A stretch of DNA of 60,407 nt, filler included, from Stramenopiles sp. TOSAG23-3 (GCA_900128585.1; 14 parts of 14 records of this genome joined end to end with filler, not necessarily neighbours in it); one strand, 5' to 3'. Shown: positions 1 to 52,931, numbered from the whole stretch's first letter. Notes: generated by a model not told the origin, from the sequence alone. Numbers and translations are program-made.

Positions 1-142
1 TATCGATTCGGATCGTGCATGGAGTCCATCTATCGATTAGTAAAACCACAAGAGCAAAGATAACTTCGCAATTTAGAGTTCACTCTTCGCAGTACATTCA
101 TTTTAATTACTTTTAAATAACAGCCAATTTTCTTGTGTTTTT
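1..142 (-). repeat. Dispersed 3'-associated element, copy 1 (longest type-A copy)
   Basis: Minus strand reads AAAACACAAGAAAATTGGCTGTTATTTAAAAGTAATTAAAATGAATGTACTGCGAAGAGTGAACTCTAAATTGCGAAGTTATCTTTGCTCTTGTGG...GGACTCCATGCACGATCCGAATCG. It lies ~150 nt after the stop of the 292..1599 gene and runs off the contig edge. Confidence 0.9.
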
Positions 143-291
143 TTAAAGACTTTTTAAAGATTTTGCATATGATACATCATACTATATATGATATAATTTG
201 TTTTTTAAAGACTTTTTACAAAACAGGGAAAAAAATTGACAATGGTATATCTTAAGAATTTACTGTAAGATTACCACACAGGGTGGCGAAA

Positions 292-1599
292 TCAATCTAG
301 CAGTGTTCGAAGAAACGAAGATGAGCTGAGAATTAGAAAGCCAATGCCAAACACAAAGATCAACAACAAAACAGCTTGCTCGAAAACTTTCTCAATCCGG
401 CTTCTTAAGTCGTCCGCAGCATCCCAGTACCCCCGTTTTTTCTGCAGTTTCCAGTAAAACAATGGGGGGAGTATGAAGCCAAGAATATTGTTTCCAAAAC
501 CGCCGGAGAGGCCGGTTAAAGCGCTGAAATCAGGGACCAGATATGCAACAAAGCCAACTGCGCACACCACTACTGTTCTTAACAGGTTTACTTTCCATGT
601 GCGGGAGGTCGCAGAAAATTCACTCTTCGACGGCTTCACCCATTCGTTTTCCAAGGCCTCGTTGAACGGAAACAAAAAAACGACGCATGTGAAAACTTGG
701 CCGATGCCTGAAAGGATAAGTACAACCGACTTTACAGGACCATCCGGTAAATTCATTATAACATTTCCCCGGACATTTTCTGTTCCGTAGAAGTACCAGC
801 ACGTAACACCAAACGACAAATTCATAATTGTTACAAAGACAATCGAACTATTAAAAACCCCATTAAAGTACGGTGCGCTCTCTTCATCCATATTCTGATG
901 CAAAGGAAGTACGGCCGTTGAAATTAGAAAACAAAACCCAGCGTTCCCCAAAAACATCGGATACGCTTCCACATCGAAAGATTTTAAGTCACTAAAATTC
1001 TGCGGAGGGTCCTTTGATCCCGCGTCTATCGCCACACTAATCACAGCAGTAAACAAAGCAACAATCCCAAAAGCCGATGTGACTGCCACCATGTTCAAAC
1101 GTCTCATCCAGCTCAGTGGTATAATTATACATATGGTTGCAAGCAATAAAAGCGTTTTGTTCCAACCTGTAACTTCGGCCAGGGCACTGGCTACAAACAC
1201 AATGTATGAACCGCAAACGCCCAATGTCATTGCAAGCAGACCAAACCATGATAGCAAATAACCAGGTCGCCCAATTGCACAATAACCAATTTCGTAGAAC
1301 TTTGGTTTGGACTGGGCTGTCAGAATACCCAGATTTTCGTCGGGCATTAAGTCACTGCAGTAGGCTAGTCGTCGTAAACTGTACGAAGAGAGAATCGCTA
1401 AAACAACCATTCCAACTGCGGACCCAACGATACCGCCGTCTGTAAACGCGTGGGGGATTTCAAAAATTCCGGCCCCTGTAAAGCATAGCGTAGTATTGAT
1501 CCAAAACGAGATTATTGAGGCCGTCAACTTTTTTTTTCCTGAACCCACCTTCTCAAGGGTTGGTAAAAGCAGATTTTGGTTCAAGATCTTCTGCTCCAT
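292..1599 (-). CDS. Amino acid transporter (AAAP/Aa_trans family)
   Basis: About 11 hydrophobic helices. N-terminal GAGIFEIPHAFTDGG and C-terminal LGFILPPLFY are typical of AAAP permeases. First ATG at 1599 (the ORF track starts at TTG 1614). Confidence 0.9.
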   Translation of the reverse strand: MEQKILNQNLLLPTLEKVGSGKKKLTASIISFWINTTLCFTGAGIFEIPHAFTDGGIVGSAVGMVVLAILSSYSLRRLAYCSDLMPDENLGILTAQSKPKFYEIGYCAIGRPGYLLSWFGLLAMTLGVCGSYIVFVASALAEVTGWNKTLLLLATICIIIPLSWMRRLNMVAVTSAFGIVALFTAVISVAIDAGSKDPPQNFSDLKSFDVEAYPMFLGNAGFCFLISTAVLPLHQNMDEESAPYFNGVFNSSIVFVTIMNLSFGVTCWYFYGTENVRGNVIMNLPDGPVKSVVLILSGIGQVFTCVVFLFPFNEALENEWVKPSKSEFSATSRTWKVNLLRTVVVCAVGFVAYLVPDFSALTGLSGGFGNNILGFILPPLFYWKLQKKRGYWDAADDLRSRIEKVFEQAVLLLIFVFGIGFLILSSSSFLRTLLD

Positions 1600-2027
1600 A
1601 GTAAAATACGACAAATTTTCTGTGCTGACTCCAGGGAAGTAATCTTCATGAACGAATTGAATATTTCTTTCCCATATAAATAGACGGCTGTGTTAAATGT
1701 ATTATTTGATAAAAGTTCACATGATAAATTTTACAAGTAATCTATAATCTTAAGAAAATGAAAACAAATACGAACTCTGACAAACGTGGTGTGAAAGTGT
1801 ATTAATAGGTGTACTACTACAGAGATGATAATTAATTACTATCCTTTTTTTTTTTCCCTTTCTTACTACTATTCCTATATTGCAATTTTTCATTTCAGCA
1901 CTAAAAATAAATTGCTATTTTTTTTGTGGTTGTTCGAAAGAAAAAGTTAACAAATGCTGAATACTCTTAAGGTAAAATATTCCTGGGGTATTGTCTTATA
2001 TATATTAATATATCATATGTCCTTAAA

Positions 2028-4246
2028 TTAGTCGCTCTTCTTCGTCCTTCGCAAATATGTGGTATAGTTTCCGTACGTGTTGTTTGGGTGATGAGAGAAC
2101 AGGAACGCCTTGTGAGGATCTAATGGATTTCCATTTTTGTCCGTTGGAAAGACGCTTGCTGCTTTACCAGAATAAGGCTCCTCCGACGGCGACTCATCAT
2201 CCAAAGTCCCGCAATGCGGCGGATGGCACTTTGGAGTGATCCCCGCACGACATAAACATGAGTCATAGCATGAGACTTCATCGTTGATGTTTTTATGTTC
2301 GAACCATTCGAGACAATTTGATAAGCATGCCGACACCTTCCAGCACGGTGTCAAATGTGTAAACCGGTTTAACAAATTATCGGGGCATCCTTTTATTCCA
2401 CGCCCATTGTGCAGATGGCAGTTATTTTTCTGCATTTCCCTCTCACGCTCCTGGTGCAACCGCTGAAGCTCTTTCTTGTGATGCTCCTCGTTTTTTTTCC
2501 AATCGTTGTCAAACATTTTAAGTTCGCATCCTTGGACATCAAAATATGTTTGACCTTGAAAACAACTGATTTGAGGGTTTCCTTCAAACCCAGCAGCGCA
2601 CGACAAATGACAATCTTTCACAGTTTTTTTTCCCTGGCACCCTGAAGTATTGTACGCATGCAGGGAACGGGGCAAACTGCACCTGTTTTTAGCGCATCCA
2701 GACAATTTTCCTTCACTCCCCCATGCAGGGCAGGAGAGTTTTGCGAGGCCCTGGCTTTCATTTGTGCCGCAATGTGCCAAACACTTTGATGGAACTGTTT
2801 CACCAGTACACCCGGCTAAAATAAACCCATTTTCCGCTTTTGGAGCATTGCAGCTTCTTTCTGTGCAGCCTGAAAGCTTGAACCGGTTGGTTTCTGTGCA
2901 TGTTGCCTCTGCTGTTCCGTCAAACTCTTTTGCGCAAGTTACCCCGCACTCGTCTTCGGAAAGGATGCCTTCGCACCCCGAAACATTGTAACCCTCGGTA
3001 TCCAATGGCAAAGCGCATACTCTCTTGTGGCAACCAGAGAAGTGAAAATCACCATTGCGTCGTAAGCACGATAATATTGGTTCGCCATCATAGGAGTAAT
3101 GATTTTCGGTACATCTAATCTTGCATTCCTCTGGCTTTACAAAACCACGACAAACATCGTGGTCGACGACTTCATATGCAGCCTTCCATGTACCATTTTC
3201 TGGGAGCTGGCAGGAGAAGTCTTGGCAGCCTGATATTTCAAACGGTCCTTGATCCTCTTTACATAAAATTTTTGTTTTCCCTTTTTTCCCTGGTGCACAA
3301 GAAATATCACATTTCGACGCTGCAACCATGCCTAAGCAATTATTGACAACGAAGCTTTTCGACAACGGCGTGTGCATTGGAATATAACACTGATTTTCCA
3401 CACACCCAGAAAAATTAAATGGTTTGCCGTTTCCAACGCACTCTACGTTAGCTGTGCCCGTGTGAGAGCTTTTACATTCAGGAGAACAACCGTGAATGGT
3501 GCCATTTTTACATTTGTTTAAGTTATAAGCGGATCGGACGAGGGCATCAGACGGAACGAAACATTTTGGTATTTCATCGTTCTTCACGCACCCCGTTAAA
3601 ATCATTGGGTATCCTGTTTGATTGCATTTTGCAGTAGGTGTGCCATGATACCCGATCGCACACGAAAGTTTGCACTCCTTTGGATCTACAAGACCCGAAG
3701 AGTCCTTCGACTGACAATGAGACAAATTGTAACCTTTCTTCGCGAGAGGATTACATGTTTTAGCAGTCACAGGGCATTTGCACGAAGATTCAATACGGAA
3801 TTCGCCTTCGTCTTCATTACACCTTGCAGTAGCGTGTCCTTGACATGGTGCTTTGCAGGACAACCTGCACTTTTGTTCTGGTATGTACTCCACAGAAGTA
3901 TTGCATTTGGTACTATTACCAAACTCAACAGGGGCGTATCCGGGAACGTAATACAGCCCTTCCTTCATTTCGTTATATTCATCCTTTCTGGCGCAATTGA
4001 TTGACCTTCCAGTAGTGCAGTCAGATACATTGATAAAGGATGGAAGACTATTTGTTTTCAAACGGCACCTATTTGGACTATCAGTTTTCTGACAACCCGT
4101 CGCTGAAAATTCACCATGATCTGAAGTGCAAAATGCGTAGATCTCACGGTTGCCTTGACTGTACCCTTCTGCACATTTCAAATGACACTCCGACGATGAT
4201 TTGAAGCCACCGCTGCAACCACTTGTATCGTATCCCTCTATACCAT
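2028..4246 (-). CDS. Cys-rich extracellular protein with ~60-aa sushi/CCP-like repeats (5' truncated)
   Basis: Repeated pattern C-x-LP...GYnxSgC...C-x-LsCa-GY/F-G-P...C...F-LsGC. The frame is open to the contig edge. Confidence 0.8.
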
Positions 4247-4346: not shown

Positions 4347-4347
4347 A

Positions 4348-6189
4348 GTATTTTGTAAAGATCACGGAGATGCAATGCACTCTCGTGGCAACCGAAAGAT
4401 GAAGCATTCCATGGTTGACATACCAAAATGCGCGGAATGCTTGCAATGGACGCGGCCAGAACCCTACCACTTGCCCCAAGTCGCCACCATTGAAATGAAA
4501 GGCGGGAACTACGACGGAATTCAGCTGTGCGACGAATGCTGGCACGGGATTGTCAAAGACCAGGAAGATGGGGGAGTGATCCATAGGCTGGTGGCAGCAT
4601 GTGCGCAATGTAAATTGTACGCAGCTAGATGGGAATGCATGGAGTGCGGCGGTGAATTGTACTGCAATGACTGCTACGTCGAAGCACACAGGAGCGGGAA
4701 ACGCCAACTCCATCGTTCGACGCCGTTAACTTACTACCCACAATCCATGCTGCGCCATGATAGACACGAACGCGAACAATTGAAAACGAAGGAAGCTTTG
4801 GATGCAAAAATGGGGGCACTGAGAGACAAGAATACCGCCCTTGTGCGCAACCGTTCCGCAAAAACCATCCAGCGAGCGTTTAGGTTTTTCAGCGCCCAAA
4901 CAATGTACAAATCAAAGCGGAGACGAATCGGCAGGGCCCGGCACGCGAAATTTTTACAACGAAAGAAGGACGACAAAGTTCGCCGTTCCTGTACATACAA
5001 AATAAAACGGTTCTTTCGGGCTCACCCTGAACTTCCATCGGACGAGTTTTCGATACCAAAAACATTGTGGAGGCGAGCGTTGCTCTCGCTGAGCGTGGTC
5101 GGAACATCGTCCGTAAGTATGTCGTCAATGTTCGAGAAAGGTGCAAAGGTGGAAATATGTAACAAACGCCACGCGTTTTTTCGGGCCCAGGGTATTATAA
5201 TGACGCCGCCGGAGACGAAAAAGAAGCCATTTCATATATTTCTTTCGTCCGCTTCGAAATCAATCACAGTGATCCTTAAAGACATTCGTATTCCTCAGGG
5301 TGTGCAAGAGCGAATACAACGAAGGTGCGCCTATACAACCATGTTGGCGCGGGAACGAAATACTGATTGGTTTGGACTTCCGGTTAAACCGAAATTTCCC
5401 ACATTAAAGCGATCCCGGTACAAACTATCCCGCAAGATACGCCGCGTGTCTGCAAAGAAAGAAATGAAACGGTACGACGACATGGCTAAACAGAACCCTG
5501 ACATGGACTACAACGAACGCCTGGCCGCGGAAAGTAGGTTGTATGTCGCCCCGTTGAAGACCACCAGCTGGAATGCGTGGGAAGCGGAGAGAGTCCATGC
5601 ACAAGAATTGGGGAACTGGGAATGGCTAAATGGCCTGGCCACTGGGAATCGATATTGGCTCAATGTTGAAACAAATGAGCGAAGAGAGTTTAAACCTCGC
5701 ATATTCTTGACGAGAAAAGATATCCTGTGGTACTACACGGCACTTCAAATCAGGGAGACGTACCGCCAGTACACTATTCAAGACTATGAAAAGGTCGAGT
5801 GTGACTGGTTTATCGCGAAAAAGGTTCAAAAGGTTCTATCGGAAGAGGAAGTTAAGCGACAGGAAGCCGCAAAATGGAAGCGTGGCCACGACGATGCCAG
5901 CGATCGTCCGTTCTGGTACAGGACCGTCATCATTCGGGACGTTCCTGGCGCAGCCCAGATGGACGAGGAAGATTTTCCTACAAGGGAAGAGAAGGTATGG
6001 GAGATGCCATTAGAGCTAATGGACCCCGAAGAACGAACTAAGAAAATAATTGAACAACAAAAAGAAGCCCAACAAAAAGCTGCTGATGATGCGCTGAGGG
6101 AAGAAAATGAATTGAAGCAGGCAGCTCGTATGAGGGAGCTCGAGCGAAAAAAGGCCAAGCGTGGAAGCAAAGGTGGGCGGCGAAGATAA
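4348..6189 (+). CDS. B-box zinc finger / IQ / WW domain protein (5' truncated)
   Basis: CAQC...CMEC...YCNDCYVEAH...H (B-box); SAKTIQRAFR (IQ); WEWLNGLATGNRYWLNVETNERREFKP and WKRGHDDASDRPFWY...VWEMP (WW-like); C-terminal coiled coil. Confidence 0.8.
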   Translation, partial: VFCKDHGDAMHSRGNRKMKHSMVDIPKCAECLQWTRPEPYHLPQVATIEMKGGNYDGIQLCDECWHGIVKDQEDGGVIHRLVAACAQCKLYAARWECMECGGELYCNDCYVEAHRSGKRQLHRSTPLTYYPQSMLRHDRHEREQLKTKEALDAKMGALRDKNTALVRNRSAKTIQRAFRFFSAQTMYKSKRRRIGRARHAKFLQRKKDDKVRRSCTYKIKRFFRAHPELPSDEFSIPKTLWRRALLSLSVVGTSSVSMSSMFEKGAKVEICNKRHAFFRAQGIIMTPPETKKKPFHIFLSSASKSITVILKDIRIPQGVQERIQRRCAYTTMLARERNTDWFGLPVKPKFPTLKRSRYKLSRKIRRVSAKKEMKRYDDMAKQNPDMDYNERLAAESRLYVAPLKTTSWNAWEAERVHAQELGNWEWLNGLATGNRYWLNVETNERREFKPRIFLTRKDILWYYTALQIRETYRQYTIQDYEKVECDWFIAKKVQKVLSEEEVKRQEAAKWKRGHDDASDRPFWYRTVIIRDVPGAAQMDEEDFPTREEKVWEMPLELMDPEERTKKIIEQQKEAQQKAADDALREENELKQAARMRELERKKAKRGSKGGRRR

Positions 6190-6205
6190 TGCTGAGTTTT
6201 ATTTT

Positions 6206-6232
6206 AAAAACAAAAAATTGGCTGTTATTTAA
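6206..6232 (+). repeat. Dispersed 3'-associated element, copy 2 (core only)
   Basis: AAAAACAAAAAATTGGCTGTTATTTAA, 16 nt after the stop at 6189, in sense orientation. Confidence 0.85.
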
Positions 6233-6268: not shown

Positions 6269-8587
6269 CTATGACTCTGCCCTACTTGCTGCCTTTCTCA
6301 GAGCTGACAGCCGACCAAGTCTGTCCTTTCGGTCAGCACTGTTCTTCATCTGGAGCCGTCTCAACTCAACAACCATGCCTGGATCCACCCTTCGTTGCCT
6401 TAAGCATGCCATTTCATTTTCCAACTGCTGATTCCTGTTGGCCAATGCATGATTCCTTTTACTTTGTTGAACACATCGCAATTCCAACGCTTTGTTCCTT
6501 TCCTGAAGCAAAGCCACTGTTTCCGGACCATCCTGGTCGTTCGGGGCGGTCTGGATCTCCTTCAACTCCAACGATTTTTCGATGGGGTTCACGGTCCACT
6601 CTGCCTGGCTAGCACGGAGCCAAATTCCCATCCCTTTCTTGCAGCATGGTTGAAATACCCGCCAGCTCGACATAACGGCGCATACGGTCTTCGCCGTGCC
6701 TTGCAGCTGTTCTCTAGATTCTAAATAGGATAACCAAATGTACGTGCCCAGTCCGACAAGAAGGCAAAAAATATTCAAAAGAAGGACACCGGCTTCTGCA
6801 GCTTTGCAGATGGTGCTAGAGCCGCCACTGTCATTGCACCTGGGGTAAACCACGAATATCCCCCCCACCCACAGCGTTAGAAAGCAACAAGAATTGAGTA
6901 GGATTTCCAGCCGGGACAAGCTTTCCGTCTCGAACGGCTGGGCCATGACAGTGTGGGCGAGCAAGACGCCGACAACACCCAGGGCAAGGAGGACTTGCAA
7001 CTCTTTGCTAAAAATACCGATATAAATAATCGCCAACTTCCGGAGCACTACCCAAAACTCGTGCCTGTAGTGCGCTCGTTTGTACCCGTCGTACAGGAGC
7101 CCGAAACGGATGCGGGTGTTGGGCTCATCCAGTTTGTCGCGAAACCGGTACAGGGTGATGAACGCCGCTAGGGGGAGGCCAAGCACGTACACGACCACGG
7201 CAGGCCACCCGATAAAATTGACCCACCAACGGTGGCTTGCGTCCGTGCAGAGCGTTTCCGGGTCGACGACGAAAATTAGACCGACTCCTTCGACCTCTTC
7301 GCACTTCCATAGCCCAAAGACGGACGCGGTAATGGAGGGGTAAAGTAAGTACAGCAACAGCACTATGGTCCCAACCATCATTGGCCGGACTTGCTTTCGT
7401 TCGACGAAGCGGGGCCCCAGGGTCGACCAGACGACGACGGTGATGAAAACGAGACCCACGGGTAAAAGCACGTAGGAAAGGGTTTTCCAGTACTCCACTT
7501 CCGCTACTGACAATGTCTGTGCCATCATGCACCGGACGTCCATGAGTTCTTCCCCCACAGATGACACCAGCGCTTGGGTACGGAACAGTCCGATGTAATC
7601 CGCGGGCCAGGGAATGCTCATTGTTGCCGACAGGGCGGCCGTTTGGAGATAGGAGAGGTAGACCTTCTTCGCACCGTCGGAGGATTCAAACGCCCCCCCG
7701 CGCTGAATTACCGTGGACCACACCAAGAAACATAAAATGGCAAGAAGTGCAAGGATTGCCAGGACCGGCACTGCCACCTTTCCCCCCTCGTCGCATTTCT
7801 TGCAGGTGCCTCGCCCGTCCCGGCTGAACCCCATCAGGCAGTCCGCGCACAACCTGCCCCCTTCACGGTACCCTTTGTCAACGTTGCAGCTTTCGGGGTG
7901 GTCGGTGCTGGTTTCTTCTGGGCACTGGCTTGCCAAGTTAGGGTTTACCGCCCCGAGGCAAGCGCACGGGTTTAGGCAGGAAGAAAAAAGCGTCGTGTTT
8001 GGGACACGCCAAAACCCTGTCATGGCCTTTACCCCAGCTATGTCCGTACCGCCGGGGCAGTACCCACCCTTTGGACAAATCTTGCACTGCTTCCCGTCCA
8101 AGTATTGGCCCGCAGGGCAACCTTCGGGGCAGTAGTCTTCCAAGCGAGTGTTTTTTGTTTTGGAGAGCCCTGGTTGGTTGTTGTACCTTCCAACGGGGCA
8201 AACGGCGCACGCCTTTGCCTGTATGGCGCCCTCGACGTGGCCGTAAAGGCCTGCCGGGCAGTCCTGACAGGAAGAGTCCTGTTCGCTGCGGGCAATTAAC
8301 GAGATACCGGTCTTCCCGTATCTCCCTAATGCGCACGCCTTTTTTCCCCCATCTTTGCAGAAAAAACCGTCTGGGCAGGCAGTGCAATTAAAAGTGTTTT
8401 CGCCGTATTCTCCAGTGGGGCATGTGTCGCACACCCTGTCATGTTGTGCAGATCCCTCGGATAGGATTTTCTCGCTACAGTTCGACCACGGCGCGCAAGT
8501 CCAAGAGTTTTGGTGTGCCGAGAACGATCCCGTTTCGCACAGTGCACATGCCCAGTCATTCACAGCCGTGGCGTTCAGTGTGATAAT
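6269..8587 (-). CDS. Cys-rich (GCC2/GCC3- and TNFR-like repeats) multi-pass membrane protein (5' truncated)
   Basis: CxxCPxGxY repeats, then several TM helices with RFGLLYDGYK...FWVVLRKL typical of protist Cys-rich receptor-like proteins, then a coiled-coil tail. Confidence 0.85.
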   Translation of the reverse strand: MITLNATAVNDWACALCETGSFSAHQNSWTCAPWSNCSEKILSEGSAQHDRVCDTCPTGEYGENTFNCTACPDGFFCKDGGKKACALGRYGKTGISLIARSEQDSSCQDCPAGLYGHVEGAIQAKACAVCPVGRYNNQPGLSKTKNTRLEDYCPEGCPAGQYLDGKQCKICPKGGYCPGGTDIAGVKAMTGFWRVPNTTLFSSCLNPCACLGAVNPNLASQCPEETSTDHPESCNVDKGYREGGRLCADCLMGFSRDGRGTCKKCDEGGKVAVPVLAILALLAILCFLVWSTVIQRGGAFESSDGAKKVYLSYLQTAALSATMSIPWPADYIGLFRTQALVSSVGEELMDVRCMMAQTLSVAEVEYWKTLSYVLLPVGLVFITVVVWSTLGPRFVERKQVRPMMVGTIVLLLYLLYPSITASVFGLWKCEEVEGVGLIFVVDPETLCTDASHRWWVNFIGWPAVVVYVLGLPLAAFITLYRFRDKLDEPNTRIRFGLLYDGYKRAHYRHEFWVVLRKLAIIYIGIFSKELQVLLALGVVGVLLAHTVMAQPFETESLSRLEILLNSCCFLTLWVGGIFVVYPRCNDSGGSSTICKAAEAGVLLLNIFCLLVGLGTYIWLSYLESREQLQGTAKTVCAVMSSWRVFQPCCKKGMGIWLRASQAEWTVNPIEKSLELKEIQTAPNDQDGPETVALLQERNKALELRCVQQSKRNHALANRNQQLENEMACLRQRRVDPGMVVELRRLQMKNSADRKDRLGRLSALRKAASRAES

Positions 8588-10465: not shown

Positions 10466-10707
10466 GTGTCTAGGTGCGCAACTGTGATGTATTTTTGTAC
10501 AAAGGTGCGCGTAATTCTTTAAACTCTCTTTTTATTTCAAAGTGTTCATTTCCGTTAAAATTCTTAAAGAATTAATAAATAAAAAACCGAAGTCAGTTTA
10601 TCTAGATTATGAGTAAAGGTGTTTCAATTTGAAAACAAATTATATAGTATGTTTTAAGACTCTCATTTTAAATCAAATATCGTTCGTCCCTTTATTGCCT
10701 GAATTCA

Positions 10708-10817
10708 AATTGATGTTAAACCATTTAAGAACAGGGTTAATTTGATGTTAAACCATTTAAGAAGGTTAATTTGATGGTAAACCAGTTTAAGAAAGATTAA
10801 TTTGATGTTAAACCATT
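10708..10817. repeat. Tandem ~30-bp minisatellite, 4 copies
   Basis: Unit AATTTGATGTTAAACCATTTAAGAA(cag)GGTT repeated with small variations, abutting element copy 3. Confidence 0.9.
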
Positions 10818-10828
10818 CCGAGATAGTT

Positions 10829-10920
10829 AAGTTCGCAGTTCATGGTCTAAATCTAGATTTCAGTTCGCAGTGTACATTAATTTTAATTACTTAAATAACA
10901 GCCAATTTTTTCTTGTTTTA
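10829..10920 (-). repeat. Dispersed 3'-associated element, copy 3
   Basis: Minus strand AAAACAAGAAAAAATTGGCTGTTATTTAAGTAATTAAAATTAATGTACACTGCGAACTGAAATCTAG...CTGCGAACTT, ~15 nt after the stop at 10935. Confidence 0.9.
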
Positions 10921-10934
10921 AAATAATCAGACCA

Positions 10935-33839: not shown

Positions 33840-34515
33840 GTTTGTAGTAGTTGTTTGTTTGTTGTTTGGTAAAAGAATTAATGAATAATTTGTTGTTGTT
33901 ATCTTTTGTAACTCTCTCTGACATGTGCACGTGAAATTAAATGTACAACCATTGCTTCAAGTGCATCTCTCTCTCTCACTCACTATCAGACGCAACACCC
34001 AATCCAAATCCACTTTTCCCTTTCAAAGAATGATGAAACCTCCTCTTTCTCTTCTTTTTCTTTCTTCTTCTATCTTCTTCTTGTTGTTGTTGAAAAAAAA
34101 GAATAAAGTTAATTGTTGTGTTTTAATGCTATGTTTATATTAATTGAAGACCTAAATTAAAGATTATTTATACTTCTTCTATTTAGATTATATTTTATAC
34201 TTTTTATTATTAATAAGACTTTGTTGTTTGTCAGGCTTCCCTTTGAAACGTTTGCTTCCTTGTGTTTATGTAAATGTGATTTTTATTAAAATGTACAAGA
34301 ACAAAACCTTCTTCTTTCTTCTATTTCTCTATGCTGTGTTTATATGTATTATTGTATCTATTACGGAAAGAAAGAAAGATATCTTTAAAAAAATAATCTT
34401 TTTGAGGTTGGTTATAATAACGTTATAGCATCGAACAATCCTTCTTAAAAAGTAAAGTTCAGTGTGAGGTTGAGAATCTCTTTCTTCTTTCTTTCGACTC
34501 TTTCTTTCTTTCGAC

Positions 34516-34563
<48 letters not shown>

Positions 34564-43187: not shown

Positions 43188-43303
43188 NNNNNNNNNNNNN
43201 NNNNNNNNNNNNNNNNNNNNNNNNNNNNNNNTTAATTAATTAANNNNNNNNNNNNNNNNNNNNNNNNNNNNNNNNNNNNNNNNNNNNGGAAGATTCTTCA
43301 ACG

Positions 43304-43325
43304 ACAGCCAATTTTCTTGGTTTTA
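43304..43325 (-). repeat. Dispersed 3'-associated element, copy 5 (core fragment)
   Basis: Minus strand TAAAACCAAGAAAATTGGCTGT, ~40 nt after the stop at 43366, near the contig edge. Confidence 0.75.
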
Positions 43326-43365: not shown

Positions 43366-44916
43366 CTACAGAAGCATCGCCTTTTTGTTCAAACGGTTGT
43401 TTGAGCGACGTTCTCGCCGTTTCCTCTCAATATTTTCCTTGGCTTTTGACTCTGCGTCTTTCCTGGGCAGATCTGGAATTTCAATATCGTGAATGTCAAC
43501 GCCAAACTTCTCCTTCATCATCTGAAAAAGTTCTAGCTCATTCCAGAGGTATTTTTTTGCAACAACGTCAACGTTTGCCGTGTTTGTGATATCCAATCGC
43601 TTAAAATAATGGCAAATTTTGTGCTCCAACTCTACAAGCATCATTTCTGCGTTCAATTCCTCTTCTTTTTTTGCTGAAAAAATATTTTTCAACCCAGACA
43701 GCTTAAGCTTTTCCCCCGTTTTAATCTTCAAACTGTCCCCAATCGGAGAGTGTAGGGTTTTCTCGCCCTCGCCTCGTTTCGATTTTTTCTTTTTCTTCTT
43801 TTTCCTCTTCTTTCGGCGAACTTTTCCCAAGTCGGGCGCATCGTTACGCTGGGCCAACGAGTGGGCTACCTCTTTTCCATCACTGCCAAAGCACTTAACA
43901 GTGGGTCCTGGCGGGTTGCCACTCATACATCGGTATTCTATTGAAGAGGACGGCGCATACGCACTGTCACCGGGTACACCGTACAGGTTAACTTCCGACC
44001 CATCGGGTTTTCTCATCTGAAATACCCAGCCGAACCTCGTTCGCATGTATATCCTTTTTAACTGCACAGTTCTGGACGAGTTCGTGTAAACCGGCGCGTG
44101 GAGTTCATATTTATGGAACGTATAAGTGTCGTCGTTGCACTCTGGCGATCCCGAGCCATTTGCACAGTACGTTAGCAATTGTTCTGGGGGGAGCTTCGTT
44201 TTGCCAGGGTTCGGGGTCTGCAAAGGTTCATCTTGGTCTTGGCTCCCCGATTCTTGCCGACCCTGATTGTTGTCTGCATCATCGCCATCAATCGTCATGT
44301 GCGAGAGCGACACTGGGAGCATGAATGGAGAAATCTTCTGGTCTATTCGTTGGGCATCTAACTGCCTTGATTGCATGGCTTTCTTATGACTTTCTAATTC
44401 ATCTTGTGGGGTAGCAGTCTTTGTTCTTAGCCCCACGCTCGGGACTGTGAACCCCGTTGTCGCAAGTATGTCCTCTCTCTTCATACTATCACCAACATCG
44501 TCTGACAGGTCTAAACAATAGTTTTGCGACATGTTGTACAGGCCGATCGCGTTACTGTCGTCTTCGCCCCCATTGTCTTCTGAACTCACGTACTTGCGTA
44601 TCGCCTGGCTCAGGACGAAGGAATTAGGCATCATTTTGTCGACGGGGAAAAAAAATACGCGCGACTTAACAATGACGAAGCAGTAGTGCACGCTATTGTC
44701 CGGTTTTGTCTCAAGCTTAACTTTCCGTTCCTCCAAGACCGGAATAATGCTTTTGCATACGTCTGAGATGAATTCTATTTGGTACCCCTGCATCCTCAAC
44801 AACAAATTTAAAAAGTTTCGGTACCGGTAGGATACCCCACCGCTTCCAAAATAATTCTTCAGTGTTGGGAACTCCATGCCCAGGTTTCGAAAGATTTCGT
44901 TCTTCGATGCAGCCAT
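43366..44916 (-). CDS. Hypothetical protein with Lys-rich segment and small C-terminal helical domain
   Basis: Uninterrupted 516-aa ORF with ATG start. C-terminal YFKRLD...NVDVVAKKYLWNELELFQMMKEKFG. Confidence 0.75.
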   Translation of the reverse strand: MAASKNEIFRNLGMEFPTLKNYFGSGGVSYRYRNFLNLLLRMQGYQIEFISDVCKSIIPVLEERKVKLETKPDNSVHYCFVIVKSRVFFFPVDKMMPNSFVLSQAIRKYVSSEDNGGEDDSNAIGLYNMSQNYCLDLSDDVGDSMKREDILATTGFTVPSVGLRTKTATPQDELESHKKAMQSRQLDAQRIDQKISPFMLPVSLSHMTIDGDDADNNQGRQESGSQDQDEPLQTPNPGKTKLPPEQLLTYCANGSGSPECNDDTYTFHKYELHAPVYTNSSRTVQLKRIYMRTRFGWVFQMRKPDGSEVNLYGVPGDSAYAPSSSIEYRCMSGNPPGPTVKCFGSDGKEVAHSLAQRNDAPDLGKVRRKKRKKKKKKKSKRGEGEKTLHSPIGDSLKIKTGEKLKLSGLKNIFSAKKEEELNAEMMLVELEHKICHYFKRLDITNTANVDVVAKKYLWNELELFQMMKEKFGVDIHDIEIPDLPRKDAESKAKENIERKRRERRSNNRLNKKAMLL

Positions 44917-45002
44917 GGCAACGGGAACCGGAAGGCAATTAATATGTGTTACCGATTATAGAAAAATTACTAAGAAGCCAATTCAAGGATAATTTTTTCT
45001 TC

Positions 45003-45083
45003 AGCAAAGATAAGTTCGAAATTTAGAGTTCAGTTCGCAGTACATAAATTTTAATTACTAAAATAACAGCCAATTTTCCTGTT
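45003..45083 (-). repeat. Dispersed element, copy 6 (type A; exception lying in a divergent intergenic region)
   Basis: Minus strand AACAGGAAAATTGGCTGTTATTTTAGTAATTAAAATTTATGTACTGCGAACTGAACTCTAAATTTCGAACTTATCTTTGCT, colinear with copy 1. Confidence 0.9.
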
Positions 45084-45722
45084 CAAAATTGCATAAAACA
45101 AATTTTATTCACAAAATTCAATATTTATTAGTCTAATTATATATCATACTTCTTCTTACCATAAAATCGTGGTGTGTGTACTTCTGTTATAATACCGGTA
45201 TTAATAATAGTAGACCGACCTTTTTTTATTTCTATTGGCTGTTACACGTAGTCACTCACACAAAACGTCGTCGTCTTTGATATTATTATTATTTATTATA
45301 TTTTTTAAATCTAAATTATTAGTCTAATATATAGACTTAAGAAGAGAAAAGAAGAAGAAGAAGGAGGAAGAGGAGTGCGACGTGGCTTTTTGCTCTTCTT
45401 CGTCGGGTCGTCTGTGTCTTTACAAAAAAAAAAAAAGAAGAAGAGATAGAATAATATATTTAGAAGAAAGAAGAAGAGAAAGAAGAAGATACTTGGTAGA
45501 AGAAGCAAGAAAGAAGAAGAAAATGCATTTTTTCACTTCTTGATTATTTATATATTGGCTGACTCTGGTATAAAATAATACACCAAAGAAAATATGCAAA
45601 AAACTGTTGAATTCTAATCATCTTTTGCTTCAGGTGGTAATAATTACATCTGATTTTAAAGGTTTTTCAAAGGTTGGTAGTGTAATTAGAGATAGACCAA
45701 CAGATTATTCGTACTGCACCAA

Positions 45723-47378
45723 ATGGCGTCTCTCACGGAGGAAAATGCCCACGCGGGCGCGCCGGACACAAGCGTAATTTTTCCTGGTGAGTTTTGGGGG
45801 GCTTGCGCACTTGCGGACAAGCTGCTTGCTGTAGCTTCGGGAACACGGACCGAAGCAAAGGTTCTCAACGAATTCCTGTCAGTTCGCTCGGTAAAAGCGA
45901 TTATGGAAGAGTTGGCGCAAACGGAATCAGTAACGGTGGAACAGGTTGACTTAATCGTAAAGTTGCTGGAGCGCATCATTTTCAATAAGTGTGGAATGGT
46001 CGTAATATCACCGTCGTTGCCAGGTACAATGAACTATGTATTTTCAGGCCTCTCGTCGCACCACCGAAAGCTCCAAACATTGTCCGTTAACGTCATTGAC
46101 CACGTTTGCGGCGAGACTAGGACGAACCCGAAGCAGGCGTACACCTTTGACGAGCGGTACGTTCAGCCTCTGATCGACGTCCTTGGCAGCGAAAACCTGG
46201 AGGCAGCAGAGGCAGCCACGGATGTCATCGCGCGGGCAGCAGAGAGGGCGGAGCCTCCGCAAAAGCGACTTTTGGTTCGTTCCCTCATCGCCTTTTATAA
46301 AACACCCAAAGACGATTATGGTTTGTGTGAAATGAGGGGACTTCACTGCATTGCCCGCGCTGCCGCTACGGACGACGCGACGTTTCACATGTGCGAAGAC
46401 ATTGGTGCGATCAAGCTCTTTGACGAGGCCGTACAGACGGACGATATACTTCTTTGCATGAACGTTCTTGAAATGTTGAGGATAATGGCGATCCAGTTGT
46501 CGGGCGCAATTTATTTTTTCCAAAATACCACCGTTATCAGCGAGCTTTTCAATATGCTAGGCGTGAAGGACACAGGAGAGGACGCCACCGACCGGATTTC
46601 TAGCTTTGGGGGCGTATCCCTGCTTTGGGGGCCCGCCATTACGTTTTTTTCCGCTGTTTTTTGGCCCGACCTGCCCATCAAAGGGCTCGACCCGATCGCA
46701 TATGAAAACAGGGAGAAATTTGTACAGTCCTACATGGTTGTTTGCATATCGATTTTGAAGTATGGGCAAGAGATGCACGAGGAGGCCATGGTTTTGACCA
46801 CCATGGGGTCCTTGAAAGAGTTTGCTGACGGCGGGATGCAAAACGCCCGGACACTTATGGAACGAGAAACTCTGGTCGAAATTATTACAACTATGACCGC
46901 ATCGACGAATAGCATGTATCGCGGGACCGCTCTGCATATATTGGCCAGTGTGTTTCGTGCGGCGCTCCCCCCGATGGAATTCGGCGTAAAACTGTTTGAT
47001 GACATTGGTAAGGCGAACCGCAATGCAACCATGTCAACTATTGATGTCTTGCTCACCTACGCGAGGCAGCCTTTGGACGACACTAGGCGGGGGGTGTTTG
47101 ACCTTTTTGGCGCAATTCTTTCACAAGGCGGGGACTGGGGCATTCGGTTAACATTTAGCCATTCCAAGTTTGAGGAATGGCTGATGGATGCGAGATCAGA
47201 AACCAGCATGGAAATGAAGCAGTGGAAATTTCATATTTACGAAGCACTTTATGCATCCAGTAATATTAGTCTGCTTCGACCCGATCTGAGAGATGAAATT
47301 CTTAATAGGGTGAAGAACGGCCCGTACCACACTGGGGGCACGGCTAGCGCACAAGTTGCCACCGAGGAAGCAATGTGA
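45723..47378 (+). CDS. PSMD5: 26S proteasome assembly chaperone PSMD5/S5b/Hsm3-like
   Basis: ARM/HEAT-like helices, DDILLCMNVLEML, and C-terminal FEEWLMDARSE...K..K...L...GPYH...VATE matching the PSMD5 tail. Confidence 0.8.
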   Translation: MASLTEENAHAGAPDTSVIFPGEFWGACALADKLLAVASGTRTEAKVLNEFLSVRSVKAIMEELAQTESVTVEQVDLIVKLLERIIFNKCGMVVISPSLPGTMNYVFSGLSSHHRKLQTLSVNVIDHVCGETRTNPKQAYTFDERYVQPLIDVLGSENLEAAEAATDVIARAAERAEPPQKRLLVRSLIAFYKTPKDDYGLCEMRGLHCIARAAATDDATFHMCEDIGAIKLFDEAVQTDDILLCMNVLEMLRIMAIQLSGAIYFFQNTTVISELFNMLGVKDTGEDATDRISSFGGVSLLWGPAITFFSAVFWPDLPIKGLDPIAYENREKFVQSYMVVCISILKYGQEMHEEAMVLTTMGSLKEFADGGMQNARTLMERETLVEIITTMTASTNSMYRGTALHILASVFRAALPPMEFGVKLFDDIGKANRNATMSTIDVLLTYARQPLDDTRRGVFDLFGAILSQGGDWGIRLTFSHSKFEEWLMDARSETSMEMKQWKFHIYEALYASSNISLLRPDLRDEILNRVKNGPYHTGGTASAQVATEEAM

Positions 47379-47394
47379 GGAGATTCTTAAGATT

Positions 47395-47440
47395 AAAAAC
47401 AAGAAAAATTGGCTGTTATTTTATATAGTAAATTAAAATT
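47395..47440 (+). repeat. Dispersed 3'-associated element, copy 7
   Basis: AAAAACAAGAAAAATTGGCTGTTATTTTATATAGTAAATTAAAATT, 16 nt after the PSMD5 stop. Confidence 0.88.
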
Positions 47441-47594
47441 AAAGAAAAAAGAAGGTGTCAGTTCAAGAACAATATCTCCTCCTATTGCAGATCCNNNNNN
47501 NNNNNNNNNNNNNNNNNNNNNNNNNNNNNNNNNNNNNNTTAATTAATTAANNNNNNNNNNNNNNNNNNNNNNNNNNNNNNNNNNNNNNNNNNNN

Positions 47595-49095: not shown

Positions 49096-49531
49096 CGCAA
49101 CAACTCAAACAAAATAGCGTACGATGGGGGCTTAAAGGTTACCTTCGTTTCGAAATTCTAAGTAAGATTTATCAAGACATTCGGCATTTAATGAACTCCT
49201 CGTCCAGTCGTCCATCCCACGACATAAGATTCTTGTTGATGATATGTGAATGACGAGGTATAATGAAGAAGGGCGGCGGCGGGCGGGGGTTGTTCAATTG
49301 AGAATTTATGATGAGACATTTTTTGTTGACGGGTGGTCCTTCTTCCAAGGGTTTGTATTCTTCAACAACAAGTACATATTAATATATTAATAAATAATAG
49401 GGGGGCGGGGGTCTCTTCTTGGGTACGGTAGGTACACTACAGGAAAATTAGGAATGCATGTTTCGGCAATTATTTGTTGATTGCTGTTATCGATAATAAT
49501 AATAACCTAAATTAGAAGCCTTCTTTCTTTT

Positions 49532-51139
49532 TCATTGACTATGTCTCTTTTTCTTTTCAACAGTTGCGGACGAGCCTATTATTGGTCTTAATTTTCTGCA
49601 CTTGACTGCCCAAGTCGACTTCATTTCTTCGACAAATTCCTGCCGGGTAGAGTCATTGGTTCCACCGAACGACTCAGGGAGTGCGTTCTTCCCGACGATG
49701 TCGTACAAGGCTTCCATATTGTTCAACATTGTGACTCTTTTCTGTAATTTAGCTGGCAAAACCTGGCACGCAATGGTCCATAACCACGACATCCAAGTTG
49801 GTTGGTTTGCAACCACAATCCCCAACATTCGCATGGGAAAACAATTTGCAGGGCTATACTTTTTCCAATCCACAGCTTTCAAACGGTAGGCATGCCGCAC
49901 CGAAAAGTCTTTTAAATCATGCACGACAAAAAACCCATTCAGACCCCAATCGTCATCGCCGCTTGTATACAGCAGGAAAAACACCGAAAACAAGATCAAA
50001 TCGTCGATGGCGACGTTCTGTAAAACAGCTGGCCTTGTAAGCAGCACCCGTTTCCCTGTGATTGTCCTTGAATTATTTCCAAGCATTACTATGCCCGAAG
50101 ACGACATGAATTGTTCCACAAACTCAGGGGTAACTTTGTCCAACAGACATTCCAACTTTATTGGATTTTCCATGTAAGAAGTGAACCCGTGAAACTGCTT
50201 TGCCGCTGCCTCAACGTGGTCACCAAAATTTCCCCCAAAAAAGCGAATGATTCGGCTCAATAATTGGTCCGAAAGTTCCGTGTTTTCTATGTACCTCTGC
50301 AGATCTGTGGAGTACTCTTCCCTGTCCGTATTGATTATTTGGTACCTAAGTGCTATGATATTGCTGGGGTGTTTGGAGTCTCTTTCCCCTTGCGTCCGGA
50401 GAAAAGGTGCTACCGACAGCGAAGCGTTCGCGGGATTCACAACAACGTCGGCAGTTGTTTTGCCCATGAGCGGAATCTCTGAAGTTGTTGGTTCTGTCGA
50501 TTGCGGTGACGACCGCATACGGAAAAACACCCACGTCGAGCAAACGATTGTTGCCGCTGACATGCACTGGTAATATTGCGAAGGGACGATTGTTCCAACG
50601 AAATGCGCCAAGAGTAAGAAAAATGTGCCAAGGGCAAAAGCAGCAGCGCCATCGCGGTTCATTTCAGAGTGCCTACCGACCGGTAGCGGCATAGGTGCCC
50701 CGGACTCCCTTGAATTCGGATGCGTGAGCTGCAAGCTCCCAAACAAGTCCAGAAACAGCTTGACTAAGTTTTTCATCTCGATTTCTGTATTGGCACGGAG
50801 GCGGAAAACCTCTACATCATTTTCCAATTCAAAGCAATATAGGTAGCTTTTATTCACAACCTTCCGTACTACCGAAGCCTCGTTCAACACGAAACCCCCT
50901 ATGGGGGCAACCCCCCCCCGTTCCTTCTGCGGGGTGTCCATCGAAAAGTATACCAGATTTGTGGTCGAGCTGCCATCGGGGGGCTTCAATAGTGCAAAGT
51001 ACCGCCGTTTCCAATTGCGACGTGAAAAGAGAGACGTCGATTTGGACCTCTCCTTCTTCCACAAAGCACCCTGGAACAGAGTTGGATAACTTGCACCACC
51101 GTATACAATTTCCCTGAATTGTTTTGCATTCTTCGCCAT
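49532..51139 (-). CDS. PH domain + TM hairpin + CRAL-TRIO (Sec14) lipid-binding protein
   Basis: PH: GALWKK...NWKRRYFAL...YCFEL...FRLRA. Two hydrophobic helices. CRAL-TRIO: HDLKDFS...FPMRM...NQP...LPAKLQKRV...LPESFGG. Confidence 0.85.
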   Translation of the reverse strand: MAKNAKQFREIVYGGASYPTLFQGALWKKERSKSTSLFSRRNWKRRYFALLKPPDGSSTTNLVYFSMDTPQKERGGVAPIGGFVLNEASVVRKVVNKSYLYCFELENDVEVFRLRANTEIEMKNLVKLFLDLFGSLQLTHPNSRESGAPMPLPVGRHSEMNRDGAAAFALGTFFLLLAHFVGTIVPSQYYQCMSAATIVCSTWVFFRMRSSPQSTEPTTSEIPLMGKTTADVVVNPANASLSVAPFLRTQGERDSKHPSNIIALRYQIINTDREEYSTDLQRYIENTELSDQLLSRIIRFFGGNFGDHVEAAAKQFHGFTSYMENPIKLECLLDKVTPEFVEQFMSSSGIVMLGNNSRTITGKRVLLTRPAVLQNVAIDDLILFSVFFLLYTSGDDDWGLNGFFVVHDLKDFSVRHAYRLKAVDWKKYSPANCFPMRMLGIVVANQPTWMSWLWTIACQVLPAKLQKRVTMLNNMEALYDIVGKNALPESFGGTNDSTRQEFVEEMKSTWAVKCRKLRPIIGSSATVEKKKRHSQ

Positions 51140-51899
51140 ACCAAAGCTGTCTCTGCGGGAGCTACTATAAGTATGAACACTCGCCTGACCCAAAGGAGAA
51201 ACCGGTGCTGCGTTCCCAGCGACGGCAGCAGAAAGCGCCTTTGGGTTGTCCCCCGTGGCGTGGTTGTGTCTTTGCTCTCGTCTGTTGCTCGGGTATTACC
51301 ACCCTATTCCCATTCTTGGAACAGTTTAATATAAAGCAATTAAAATGCAATAGACAAATGTTAATTTGAATCCACTCTGTTTTCGCCAAATTAAAAACAT
51401 TATATTATCATTTTTTATGGGTTTTTTATTATATTACTGGTATTATATTTTTGATTGAAATAATAATTGACAGAAGAAGAAGAAGAAGAAGAGAGAAGAA
51501 GAAGAGGAGGAAGAAGACGAGAAGAGAAAGCGAAGAAGGAAGAAGAAGAGAAGGACGAAGAAGGAAGAAAGAAGGAAGAAGAAGAGAAGAAGAAAGAACG
51601 AAGAAGAAGAAGAGAAGATGAAGATAGAAGAAGCAAGAAATTATTTTATATTTTCAATTGTGTGGGTGATTATGTGTGGTGTAATGTACGTATAATACTA
51701 TAATACACAATGTGTTATTTATGTCATATGCCTTTTTCTATTATTCTAAAAATGAACAATAAACTGGCGGCTGGCTTGCTTCTTTCTCAGAACTCAGAAN
51801 NNNNNNNNNNNNNNNNNNNNNNNNNNNNNNNNNNNNNNNNNNNTTAATTAATTAANNNNNNNNNNNNNNNNNNNNNNNNNNNNNNNNNNNNNNNNNNNN

Positions 51900-52043
51900 G
51901 TCACCGACGTACCCATCCTCCCCGAAATCAATGAGCCCCAAGAAAAAGGACGCGAAGTACACACAACGCAAAGAAGCAAAAAATACAAAGAGTTGAAGAA
52001 ATCGTACATTGAAGAAAGTGACGGCGGTTTATATTTATATTAA
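51900..52043 (+). CDS. 3' fragment of an unknown gene
   Basis: Open frame from the contig start, VTDVPILPE...GGLYLY*, with coding-like composition. Confidence 0.5.
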   Translation, partial: VTDVPILPEINEPQEKGREVHTTQRSKKYKELKKSYIEESDGGLYLY

Positions 52044-52183
52044 AAACAAAAAATTGTCTGTTGTTATTTAAGTAATTAAAATTTAGCTTTCTCCTGTACA
52101 GCGAAAATGAAACTGCTCCTTTTGTCCATTAGAGGTTTGCGTTCCTTCATGTATACTGCGAACTTATCTCTGCTCTTGTGGTT
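52041..52183 (+). repeat. Dispersed 3'-associated element, copy 8 (type B)
   Basis: Core begins at the TAA, followed by AAAATTTAGCTTTCTCCTGTACAGCGAAAATGAAACTGCTCCTTTTGTCCA and then CTGCGAACTTATCTCTGCTCTTGTGGTT. Confidence 0.85.
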
Positions 52184-52237
52184 ATATAATTTGTTAATAA
52201 TATTCATTATTAAGGAATGTAAACCTCGAATGTTTAG

Positions 52238-52309
52238 TAGATTTCAGTTCGCAGTTCGCAGTACATTTATTTTAATTTTACTTAAATAATAGCCAATTTT
52301 CTTGTTTTA
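52238..52309 (-). repeat. Dispersed element, copy 9 (type A)
   Basis: Minus strand TAAAACAAGAAAATTGGCTATTATTTAAGTAAAATTAAAATAAATGTACTGCGAACTGCGAACTGAAATCTA. Confidence 0.88.
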
Positions 52310-52680
52310 CTTAGTACTTCGTATTTTATATTTGATAAGTAAAAAACAAATAGTAACGGGGGCTAATTTAGAGATTAAATCTAAAGTGATTTAAGTTTAA
52401 AAAACAAACTAATTCAGGCCAATTTTTTATTAGTTAATATATACATATATAGAAGTTCTTTTACGAACGAAATAATAGCCAGACTACTTACCTCTTGAAA
52501 TGCCAAATTCATCCTTCTTTGCAATGTGAAACAAAATTATGGCTCTGTTATATTAGGTCAAGCACCTTTAAACAATTCACGCCGCTGCTTGGAAAATTAC
52601 ACAAGGACTGATTCATTTACGAGTGGGAAATCGTGCGAGGAAGTTGACTAACGGTCTTTTGACATCGACGCAAATCCACA

Positions 52681-52926
52681 TACCGATTCGGATCATGCAT
52701 GGAGTACACATGAGAATGAGATCGTCAAGACCAAAAGTGACTAAGAATATTATATTTTGGAAATTAAAAAGTAAAATCTCAGGAGCAGAGATAAGTTCGC
52801 AGCATTGTGAAAAAGAATCAAACGTAAATAATTTTTAAATTGGACCGAAGGAGCAGATTCACTTTCACGGTATATGGCAGAAGGTAAATTTTAAATACTT
52901 TAAACCACAGCCAAATTGTTCGTTTA
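52681..52926 (-). repeat. Dispersed 3'-associated element, copy 10 (type B, diverged, long)
   Basis: Starts ~5 nt after the stop at 52932: AATTTGGCTGTGGTTTAAAGTATTTAAAATTTACCTTCTGCCATATACCGTGAAAGTGAATCTGCTCCTTCGGTCCA...CTGCGAACTTATCTCTGCTCC...ACTCCATGCATGATCCGAATCGGTA. The last module is shared with copy 1. Confidence 0.85.
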
Positions 52927-52931
52927 ATATT

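Follow-up and report, generated by a model that had tools for sequence, protein, structure and literature searches.

A repeat at gene ends of a marine protist as the probable 3′ terminus of a LINE-type retrotransposon with an R2-like endonuclease

The DNA analysed here, which we call the window, is a stretch of 60,407 nucleotides (nt), filler included, from Stramenopiles sp. TOSAG23-3 (GCA_900128585.1). It joins 14 unlinked contigs of about 4.2 kb each, with spacers of the form N44-TTAATTAATTAA-N44. The long open reading frames (ORFs) are eukaryotic and have few introns, e.g. those for an amino-acid transporter, a tetraspanin, a CDKN3-like phosphatase, a peroxisomal-type ABC transporter and a CRAL-TRIO/PH protein. 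Their closest database proteins are at most 51% identical and come from marine metagenomes and protist transcriptomes. Contig 2 is found at half or more of its sampled words in 14 sequencing runs; together with six RNA runs at a lower share, these represent 11 studies, mostly of marine metagenomes. Beside the genes lies a short repeat, which a sequence-only reading of the window had described as a modular element in sense orientation just after stop codons. That reading offered two explanations: a mobile element resembling a short interspersed element (SINE) or a miniature inverted-repeat transposable element (MITE), with strand-specific targeting to gene 3′ ends, or a signal for 3′ processing or for the 3′ untranslated region (3′UTR). 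In our view the core of the repeat is very probably the conserved 3′ terminus of a high-copy retrotransposon without long terminal repeats, of the long interspersed element (LINE) type, that belongs to an uncultured, few-intron marine protist.

The core, GAAAATTGGCTGTTATTTAA, has eight matches in the window at up to three mismatches, against none expected from 100 shuffles. The 38-mer quoted in the sequence-only reading has no match at this threshold because it carries insertions or deletions against every copy. An nhmmer profile built from four copies gave nine matches in the window (9-151, 6199-6232, 10786-10933, 14765-14808, 44953-45095, 47395-47441, 52037-52187, 52186-52322 and 52770-52934), and a core match at 43297-43316 fills the tenth of the intervals named earlier. 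Each of the ten intervals thus holds a copy. The copies are spread over contigs 1, 2, 3, 4, 11 and 13 (6 of the 14), at about one copy per 6 kb. Other early observations also reproduce. For eight copies the distance from the core side to the stop of an ORF on the core's strand is about 150, 15-16, 15, 95, 40, 16, 0 and 5 nt, copies meet a contig end or N gap at 1, 14849, 43288 and 47494, and the core is present at 8-9 of about 27 ORF ends in the window, where about 8 had been claimed.

The similarity between the best copies extends well past what had been taken for the distal end of the repeat. The core forms the last ~40 nt of a much longer element, which lies on the strand opposite to the one earlier called 'sense'. 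Read in its own orientation, the element has a long ORF, then a 3′UTR of 110-130 nt whose middle part differs between subfamilies, and then an invariant end (...ATTTTAATTACTTAAATAACAGCCAATTTTCTTGTTTT, with the terminus ...CAGCCAATTTTCTTGTTTT). The C-terminus of the ORF reads ...SEISDEEVDYGS..S....D.DSD.SW.P. before the stop codon. In the longer loci found in metagenome contigs the ORF spans 84 amino acids (aa; locus L022), 130 aa (L041) and 202 aa (L015), and it continues in the database proteins P0043, P0044, P0045, P0046 and P0047, a set that includes incomplete proteins of 744-851 aa. The 90%-identity cluster of P0043 (776 aa) has 116 members and that of P0045 (851 aa) has 83; a further cluster has 11. 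Another 256 representative proteins match the ORF at E<=0.001, and all of the 150 listed among them are fragments of up to 419 aa.

Some database proteins combine the ORF with other sequence. P0048 and P0155 have host-type domains (DUF229/sulfatase-like and FAE1/type III PKS-like, respectively) fused to fragments of the element ORF; these are either chimeric gene calls or gene-end insertions that gene finders have read through. The first ~40 residues of P0178, an acidic stretch (...DSPSNSDGFEEV...), match L008, L013, L037, L041 and L092 apart from the main ORF match; they may represent a further coding fragment that is repeated, or an alternative C-terminal tail within this family.

The ten copies in the window differ in length and setting. 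The first, c1 (1-143, plus strand), has its 5′ part cut by the contig start and reaches its 3′ terminus, ...CTTGTGTTTTTTT, at 143, about 150 nt from the stop of the gene at 292-1614 (minus strand); over 136 nt it is 89.7% identical to the metagenome locus L046. Only 34 nt of 3′ terminus make up c2 (6199-6232, minus), in the 80-nt spacer between the convergent ORFs 4375-6189 (plus) and 6269-8563 (minus). The 3′ terminus of c3 (10820-10922, plus) lies ~15 nt from the stop of 10935-11762 (minus), and the 31-nt tandem repeat that adjoins it at 10710-10817 makes its 5′ border uncertain. Contig 11 holds three copies: c11a (43288-43325, plus) is cut by the contig start, matches the core with three mismatches and lies ~40 nt from the stop of 43366-44916 (minus); c11b (44953-45083, plus; profile E-value 1.5e-33) lies between the starts of that ORF and of 45723-47378 (plus); and c11c (47395-47442, minus), about 48 nt long, has its 3′ terminus 16 nt from the stop of the latter ORF, in a contig that ends at 47494. 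For c2, c3 and c11c, core and profile agree. The placement of c11b between two gene starts bears out the single exception that had been pointed out for 45003-45083.

A copy was also correctly located at 14770-14815, although its extent proved too short. We trace c4 on the minus strand from 14767 to 15010, across the N gap at 14849-14933, on the evidence of a tblastn match, the sequence itself and the 12-bp duplication that bounds it. Beyond the gap, 14935-15015 (minus) encodes residues 723-749 of the element protein P0043 at 92.6% identity (tblastn). The duplication, CTCTCTCATTTT, stands at 14755-14766 and again at 15011-15022, and this 12-mer occurs exactly twice in the window, where 0.03 occurrences are expected. 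The empty site before insertion would have been ...CTCTCTCATTTT/AAAATAAAG..., reading ...CATTTT/AAAATAAAG at the junction.

The remaining copies are in contig 13. There, c13a (52037-52187, minus; profile match) has a 3′ terminus that overlaps the stop of an ORF entering from the contig start, and c13b (52186-52309, plus; profile and core matches) is inverted relative to it. The two are joined 5′ end to 5′ end over 52037-52309, with both 3′ termini outermost. The third, c13c (52558-52926, plus), is diverged and about 370 nt long; it retains a remnant of the ORF C-terminus (…EEVD before the stop) and the 3′UTR, has blastn matches to L049, L022, L001, L070 and L061, and ends 5 nt from the stop of the gene at 52932-54860 (minus). 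Together the three copies fill an 890-nt spacer between two convergent genes.

In order to collect further copies, the 17-mer AAAATTGGCTGTTATTT was scanned in prokaryote genomes and in metagenome contigs. The prokaryote genomes gave 120 loci, almost all of them bare chance matches; L141, L153 and L160 have short extensions of 23-45 nt, which we also take as chance. One 4.1-kb, eukaryote-like contig with the element (L216/L251) sits inside a metagenome-assembled genome labelled Dehalococcoidia bacterium. As the rest of that assembly, 2.3 Mb in all, is free of the element, the contig probably represents eukaryotic DNA that was binned wrongly. The metagenome contigs gave at least 131 stretches in 130 loci, on which all of our metagenome copy counts are based; in 93 of these loci the similarity extends past the 17-mer. 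Removing duplicates and demanding a match over the 9 nt beside the core left 119 of 184 candidates. The 65 that were dropped are mostly chance 16-mers in unrelated contigs, along with some diverged copies, and five of the ten window copies fail the same 9-nt filter.

The abundance of the repeat is well seen at c3. In two marine metagenomes the summed contig depth of the bin at 10850-10957 is 9708 and 19989, compared with ~4.5-8.5 in the flanking gene bins, i.e. about 2000-fold above the flanks; in two metatranscriptomes the core bin reaches 352 and 348 against 0-8. Summed depth of this kind reflects the many contigs that carry the repeat, and is neither a copy number nor an expression level. 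In both metagenomes, DNA contigs run into c3 from each of its two sides and no contig bypasses it, hence this insertion is shared. No empty allele of c3 was seen in the metagenome contigs; the joints listed belong to other copies and have sides of only 21-30 nt. RNA contigs span parts of the genes next to c3, and stop short of the 3′ ends of these genes. The spacer beside c3 is structurally polymorphic: over 102 nt (10633-10734) one metagenome contig (run X6, record 28) has 21 other letters, with both sides matching. The 31-nt tandem repeat at 10710-10817 (3.5 copies, 88% matches) is present in 1 of 251 loci. Elsewhere in the window there are purine-rich microsatellites, (GAA)n, (GGAA)n and (GAAA)n, at 11995-12130, 12199-12405, 12822-12927, 17133-17260, 17361-17497, 34479-34563, 59143-59295 and 60305-60407. 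Many of these stand at contig ends or beside an N gap and are a further cause of assembly breaks.

Two hallmarks of retroposition can be read from the collected copies. One is truncation at the 5′ side. Measured from the shared terminus, the 119 filtered copies form a continuous range from 29 to 455 nt with a median of ~72, and these lengths are lower bounds; long young copies have probably been lost by the assemblies. Nearly all matches to the L046 query begin at its positions 37-44, with scattered ends. The earlier observation that the far end is variably cut holds well beyond the window. The short copies are, in our reading, the 3′ stubs of 5′-truncated copies of a LINE-type retrotransposon with an R2-like endonuclease.

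The other hallmark is duplication of the target site. We compared exact flank matches in 90 copies with shuffled flank pairings: matches of at least 9 nt were found in 8.9% of copies against 0.7% of controls, and of at least 10 nt in 6.7% against 0.3%. Of the eight duplication cases listed, L103 is an artefact of tandem copies. The clear duplications measure 9-13 bp (examples are 11, 9, 11, 12 and 13), lie directly behind the terminal T-run and mostly have A as their first letter. The duplications proposed as a check on the repeat are hence present in part of the copies, including the 12 bp at c4.

A second short repeat was noticed directly behind c1. At 144-218 (plus), a 49-nt insert (157-205) ending ...AATTTGTTTTTT is enclosed by a 13-bp direct repeat, TAAAGACTTTTTA, at 144-156 and 206-218, which occurs exactly twice in the window (0.00 expected). 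Its family ends in ...ATAATTTGTTTT(TT), and a relative of the insert is found at 10632-10651 (minus). The bin at 10634-10741 has summed metagenome depths of 3639 and 9680. Its terminal TTGTTTT is also that of the main element, whose machinery it may therefore use.

What does the ORF encode? The proteins match no significant Pfam family; zf-primase is a sub-threshold match only. They contain a CCHC knuckle. In P0047 this motif takes the form C7xC9...H28xxxC32, with H28 conserved in 89% and C32 in 94% of sequences, and it is also found in P0043-P0046, P0049 and P0059. Behind the C-x-C...H-x3-C there are conserved H, E, D and K..KY positions. For comparison, the account of R2 in PMC4838377 describes a reverse transcriptase (RT) followed by a CCHC motif and then a PD-(D/E)XK-type nuclease, whose motifs are RH, PD, D/E, K..KY (with the catalytic lysine in helix 2) and RG.W. 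The order in the element, CCHC - H42 (95%) - D107 - D164 (94%, in a strand) - K..KY (in the next helix), is compatible with this scheme, with 'AD' in place of the 'PD' of the R2 series. K..KY is literal in P0043 and P0045, and Y186 is conserved in 88%.

The predicted structure points the same way. An AlphaFold2 model of P0047 from a 71-sequence alignment has a predicted local distance difference test score (pLDDT) mostly above 90 over residues ~40-295. In an exhaustive structural comparison (VIA, 48,161 PDB chains) the top two matches of this model were the C-terminal endonuclease regions of R2 proteins, namely 9dou_A (R2Tg; Z 10.0, root-mean-square deviation 3.6, 180 residues aligned) and 8ibw_C (R2Bm; Z 9.4, deviation 3.4, 171 aligned). 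The endonuclease-like domain of Prp8 came next at Z 7.3-6.3, with viral cap-snatching PD-(D/E)XK nucleases at ~6-7, which puts the R2 matches some 2.5-3 Z units above generic nucleases of this fold. The sole high-probability rows from Foldseek are again R2 proteins, at probabilities of 0.92 and 0.87 (E 0.09 and 0.12) over ~295 columns. In the ESM Atlas the nearest named cluster to P0043 is zf-RVT (17% of members, score 0.84), which we treat as a lead only. Behind the nuclease follow about 300 aa, made up of a helical domain and an acidic low-complexity tail. Upstream, P0130, P0178 and P0189 share a conserved stretch, ...FLGV...N.LR.TF.RRRGGMGF..., and the distance from this presumed RT end to the CCHC is ~380 aa. 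The 73 long ORFs of the loci are ordinary host genes, and none contains an RVT domain.

The position of the copies relative to genes was examined with ORFs of at least 120 or at least 150 codons as gene stand-ins, which is crude, since the first ATG is assumed to be the start and introns are left out of account. Among loci of at least 2 kb, 24 of 28 convergent (tail-to-tail) spacers hold 34 copies in all, 13 of 25 tandem spacers hold 17, and nine divergent (head-to-head) spacers hold none; the loci were chosen for holding the element, and only the split between spacer types is informative. A second set comprised 59 metagenome copies, window excluded, with at least 600 nt on both sides, where a gene end within 400 nt was counted. 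The 3′ end of the element faces a gene tail in 38 of these and a gene head in 6, and the 5′ end a tail in 43 and a head in 1. With the 63 copies of an earlier version of this test, the tail and head counts were 40 and 6 for the 3′ end and 44 and 3 for the 5′ end. Orientation within tandem spacers is split 9 to 8, and in tail-to-tail spacers it is the 3′ end that lies nearer a gene in 18 cases and the 5′ end in 15. A GC content of at least 0.45 within 30-90 nt is seen for 25% of copies on the 3′ side and 14% on the 5′ side. The element is thus placed downstream of genes, either way round, and 'sense to the gene' is no general rule.

This removes the strand-specific part of the earlier description, while the enrichment at gene 3′ flanks stands. 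The strand called 'sense' was an arbitrary choice, and the ORF and 3′UTR of the element are antisense to the neighbouring genes. The window looked strand-specific because of two groups of copies. Three (at 6213, 10891 and 14778) lie between convergent genes, and are sense to one neighbour and antisense to the other. Four (at 1, 43297, 47404 and 52034) lie at contig ends and show their core-side flank alone, since assemblies break inside the repeat and copies are recognised by the core.

Over the 120 nt that follow stops, TTTTA and TAAAA have only ~1.5-2 times the frequency that they have over the 120 nt ahead of starts. No sharp T-run motif that could define the strand of the target was seen behind stops; the two words are even over the first 120 nt. 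An excess this small seems too weak for target preference alone to explain the lack of any of the 51 copies in head-to-head spacers, which suggests that insertions near promoters were lost to selection, or that there is an extra targeting mechanism. The five of ten window copies near stops, the 0 of 51 between diverging genes and the weak motif excess together leave room for targeting beyond mere tolerance. The element may represent a lineage of LINEs with a restriction-like endonuclease (RLE) that has given up specificity for a single site and actively targets convergent spacers and the 3′ ends of genes transcribed by RNA polymerase II, although we think this rather unlikely. Under the same doubtful proposal, the ~300-aa extension with its acidic ...SDEEVDYGS...DSD.W tail would tether the element to the 3′-end processing or termination machinery. 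A literature search on retrotransposons in convergent or downstream positions returned nothing directly relevant among the papers listed.

Taken as a LINE, the element would spread by target-primed reverse transcription. A nick in the target would be the place where DNA is made from the element RNA, and synthesis would usually stop early, leaving short 3′ stubs with a common tail and a variable 5′ cut, flanked by short duplications of variable length. We infer that the reverse transcriptase lies upstream in the same ORF, and that nicking takes place at sites where a T-run meets an A-run, such as TTTT/AAAA. The bias to 3′ flanks would come from this target preference together with the loss of insertions near promoters.

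Several observations weigh against the element being such a retrotransposon. It ends in a T-run followed by only 1-13 A, without a long poly(A). A clear duplication is present in just ~9% of copies; in the window none was found at c2 or c3. The 3′ terminus lies within 16 nt of a stop in 5 of the 10 window copies and within 20 nt in 4 of the 59 metagenome copies; the metagenome loci may mix related species. In the nuclease, the RG.W of R2 is not evident and D107 is conserved in less than 85% of sequences. A first model, of P0057 from 35 sequences, was poor (mean pLDDT 51), Foldseek gave no match at E<=0.001 (E 0.09-0.4 for R2 chains), and a profile of the 35 sequences against PDB sequences yielded no R2 chain at E<=10, with chance-level matches only. 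No RT domain was seen in the proteins and loci examined, which end short of its place. Pfam finds no family in the N-terminal extensions P0130, P0178 and P0189, and their FLGV...RRRGGMGF stretch may resemble the end of LINE RT domains.

How do the other explanations compare? One point for a lineage-specific signal for 3′-end processing, termination or the 3′UTR, in the sense of the host gene, is the window itself, where eight copies lie 0-150 nt behind a same-strand stop, five of them within 16 nt. RNA-library contigs also carry the core, as the metatranscriptome depths show (352 and 348 against 0-8), and in one 3.9-kb RNA contig it lies 44-79 nt from the end. The core further contains AAATAA ~22 nt before the element end, which is probably a poly(A) signal, but one for the element's own strand. 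However, the core runs on into a conserved ORF of the opposite strand, target-site duplications flank copies, and orientation to genes is unbiased among the 59 copies and the 17 in tandem spacers. In the window, one copy is located between the starts of two genes, some two thirds of the gene ends are without the core, and distances of 0-150 nt allow no fixed spacing. The ~90% identity over 40-360 nt is also far more than a signal needs. Nor is there any sign of a functional RNA structure: when four copies were folded on the element strand and two on the opposite one, the z-scores against shuffles were +0.3 to +1.7, no better than chance. Rfam has no match in the window at the gathering score, and at E<=1 the four long-copy loci gave one chance-level microRNA match, in keeping with the early remark that this is no known non-coding RNA. 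We consider a host signal very improbable.

The mobile, high-copy character proposed earlier is supported; the likeness to a SINE or MITE is not. Most short copies could stem from a SINE-like derivative of ~230-360 nt, non-autonomous and with a 3′ tail taken from the LINE, and some 5′ ends do recur: on the L022 query they fall at position 1213 for four copies (L069, L096 and two in L049) and at 1166 for two, while six reach position 262 of the L046 query. The middle of the 3′UTR also falls into distinct subfamilies, with only the last ~40 nt in common. Against this, the copy lengths form a continuum between 29 and 455 nt, the recurrent 5′ ends lie inside coding sequence, and the copies that start at 1166 (L041 and L015) in fact run on into the ORF. 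No tRNA-, 5S- or 7SL-like head, which would contain an internal RNA polymerase III promoter, is present, and ARAGORN finds no tRNA genes in the window. Such a derivative seems improbable to us. A MITE or other DNA transposon, with the core as terminal inverted repeat, would make one complete element of 52037-52187 (minus) and 52186-52309 (plus), where the cores of two inverted copies are outermost; L049 and L051 contain converging pairs as well. Most copies are solitary with one constant end, though, tandem pairs are about as common as inverted ones, and the duplications vary from 9 to 13 bp. The constant end leads into an ORF and 3′UTR, with no second inverted repeat. This makes a DNA transposon extremely improbable, and the stub of an ORF-bearing retrotransposon remains the reading that we prefer.

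As a LINE-type retrotransposon, the element is a new, previously unnamed and dispersed member of the RLE type; that is, a known kind of element and not a new RNA. What appeared to be a new gene-end signal becomes a transposable-element annotation, for a family that has no name in any library searched and is abundant in marine metagenomes from several studies. Its stubs break assemblies at gene ends and cause chimeric gene calls in metagenome protein databases. It also adds a dispersed member, outside ribosomal DNA (rDNA), to the early-branching RLE LINEs, which inform how LINEs choose their targets and are under development as gene-insertion tools. A compact protist genome in which the element keeps to gene 3′ flanks provides a clean case for weighing targeting against selection. 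Should active targeting of 3′ ends prove true, it would be a new kind of 'safe haven', where the usual ones are single sites such as rDNA, small nuclear RNA and spliced-leader genes.

The closest known relatives are the elements of the R2 group (R2, R4, NeSL, CRE, HERO and Utopia), which have the same order of a CCHC motif and a PD-(D/E)XK-type nuclease; the helix that follows the third strand carries K..KY. R2Tg and R2Bm are the best structural matches to the nuclease, ahead of Prp8, and PMC5678591 deals with the link between Prp8 and RLE LINEs. 5′-deleted copies of R2 are a topic of PMC4370867, and copies of the element are likewise 5′-truncated; target-primed reverse transcription would be a further shared feature. 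As summarised in PMC4640811, most RLE LINEs insert into one specific repeated target, e.g. rRNA genes or microsatellites. Unlike these site-specific LINEs, the element is dispersed beside unrelated single-copy genes, and a sequence profile against the PDB (E<=10) detects no similarity to R2. Its ~300 aa behind the nuclease and the ~380 aa from the presumed RT end to the CCHC also differ from R2. R2 ORFs end soon after the RLE.

With L1-type LINEs the element shares 5′ truncation, variable duplications that begin with A and the nick inferred at TTTT/AAAA; the L1 target consensus is TTTT/AA. Unlike L1, whose nuclease is N-terminal and of the apurinic/apyrimidinic endonuclease (APE) type, it has a nuclease with the RLE fold, downstream of the presumed RT end, and its final T-run is followed at most by very few A. 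The EhLINE and EhSINE elements of Entamoeba, which are RLE LINEs without site specificity and their SINE partners in a compact protist genome, may be comparable; they are dispersed in AT-rich intergenic sequence beside genes, with variable duplications and many truncated copies. In contrast to Entamoeba, the host of the present element is a free-living marine flagellate, with genes for dynein and ODAD1.

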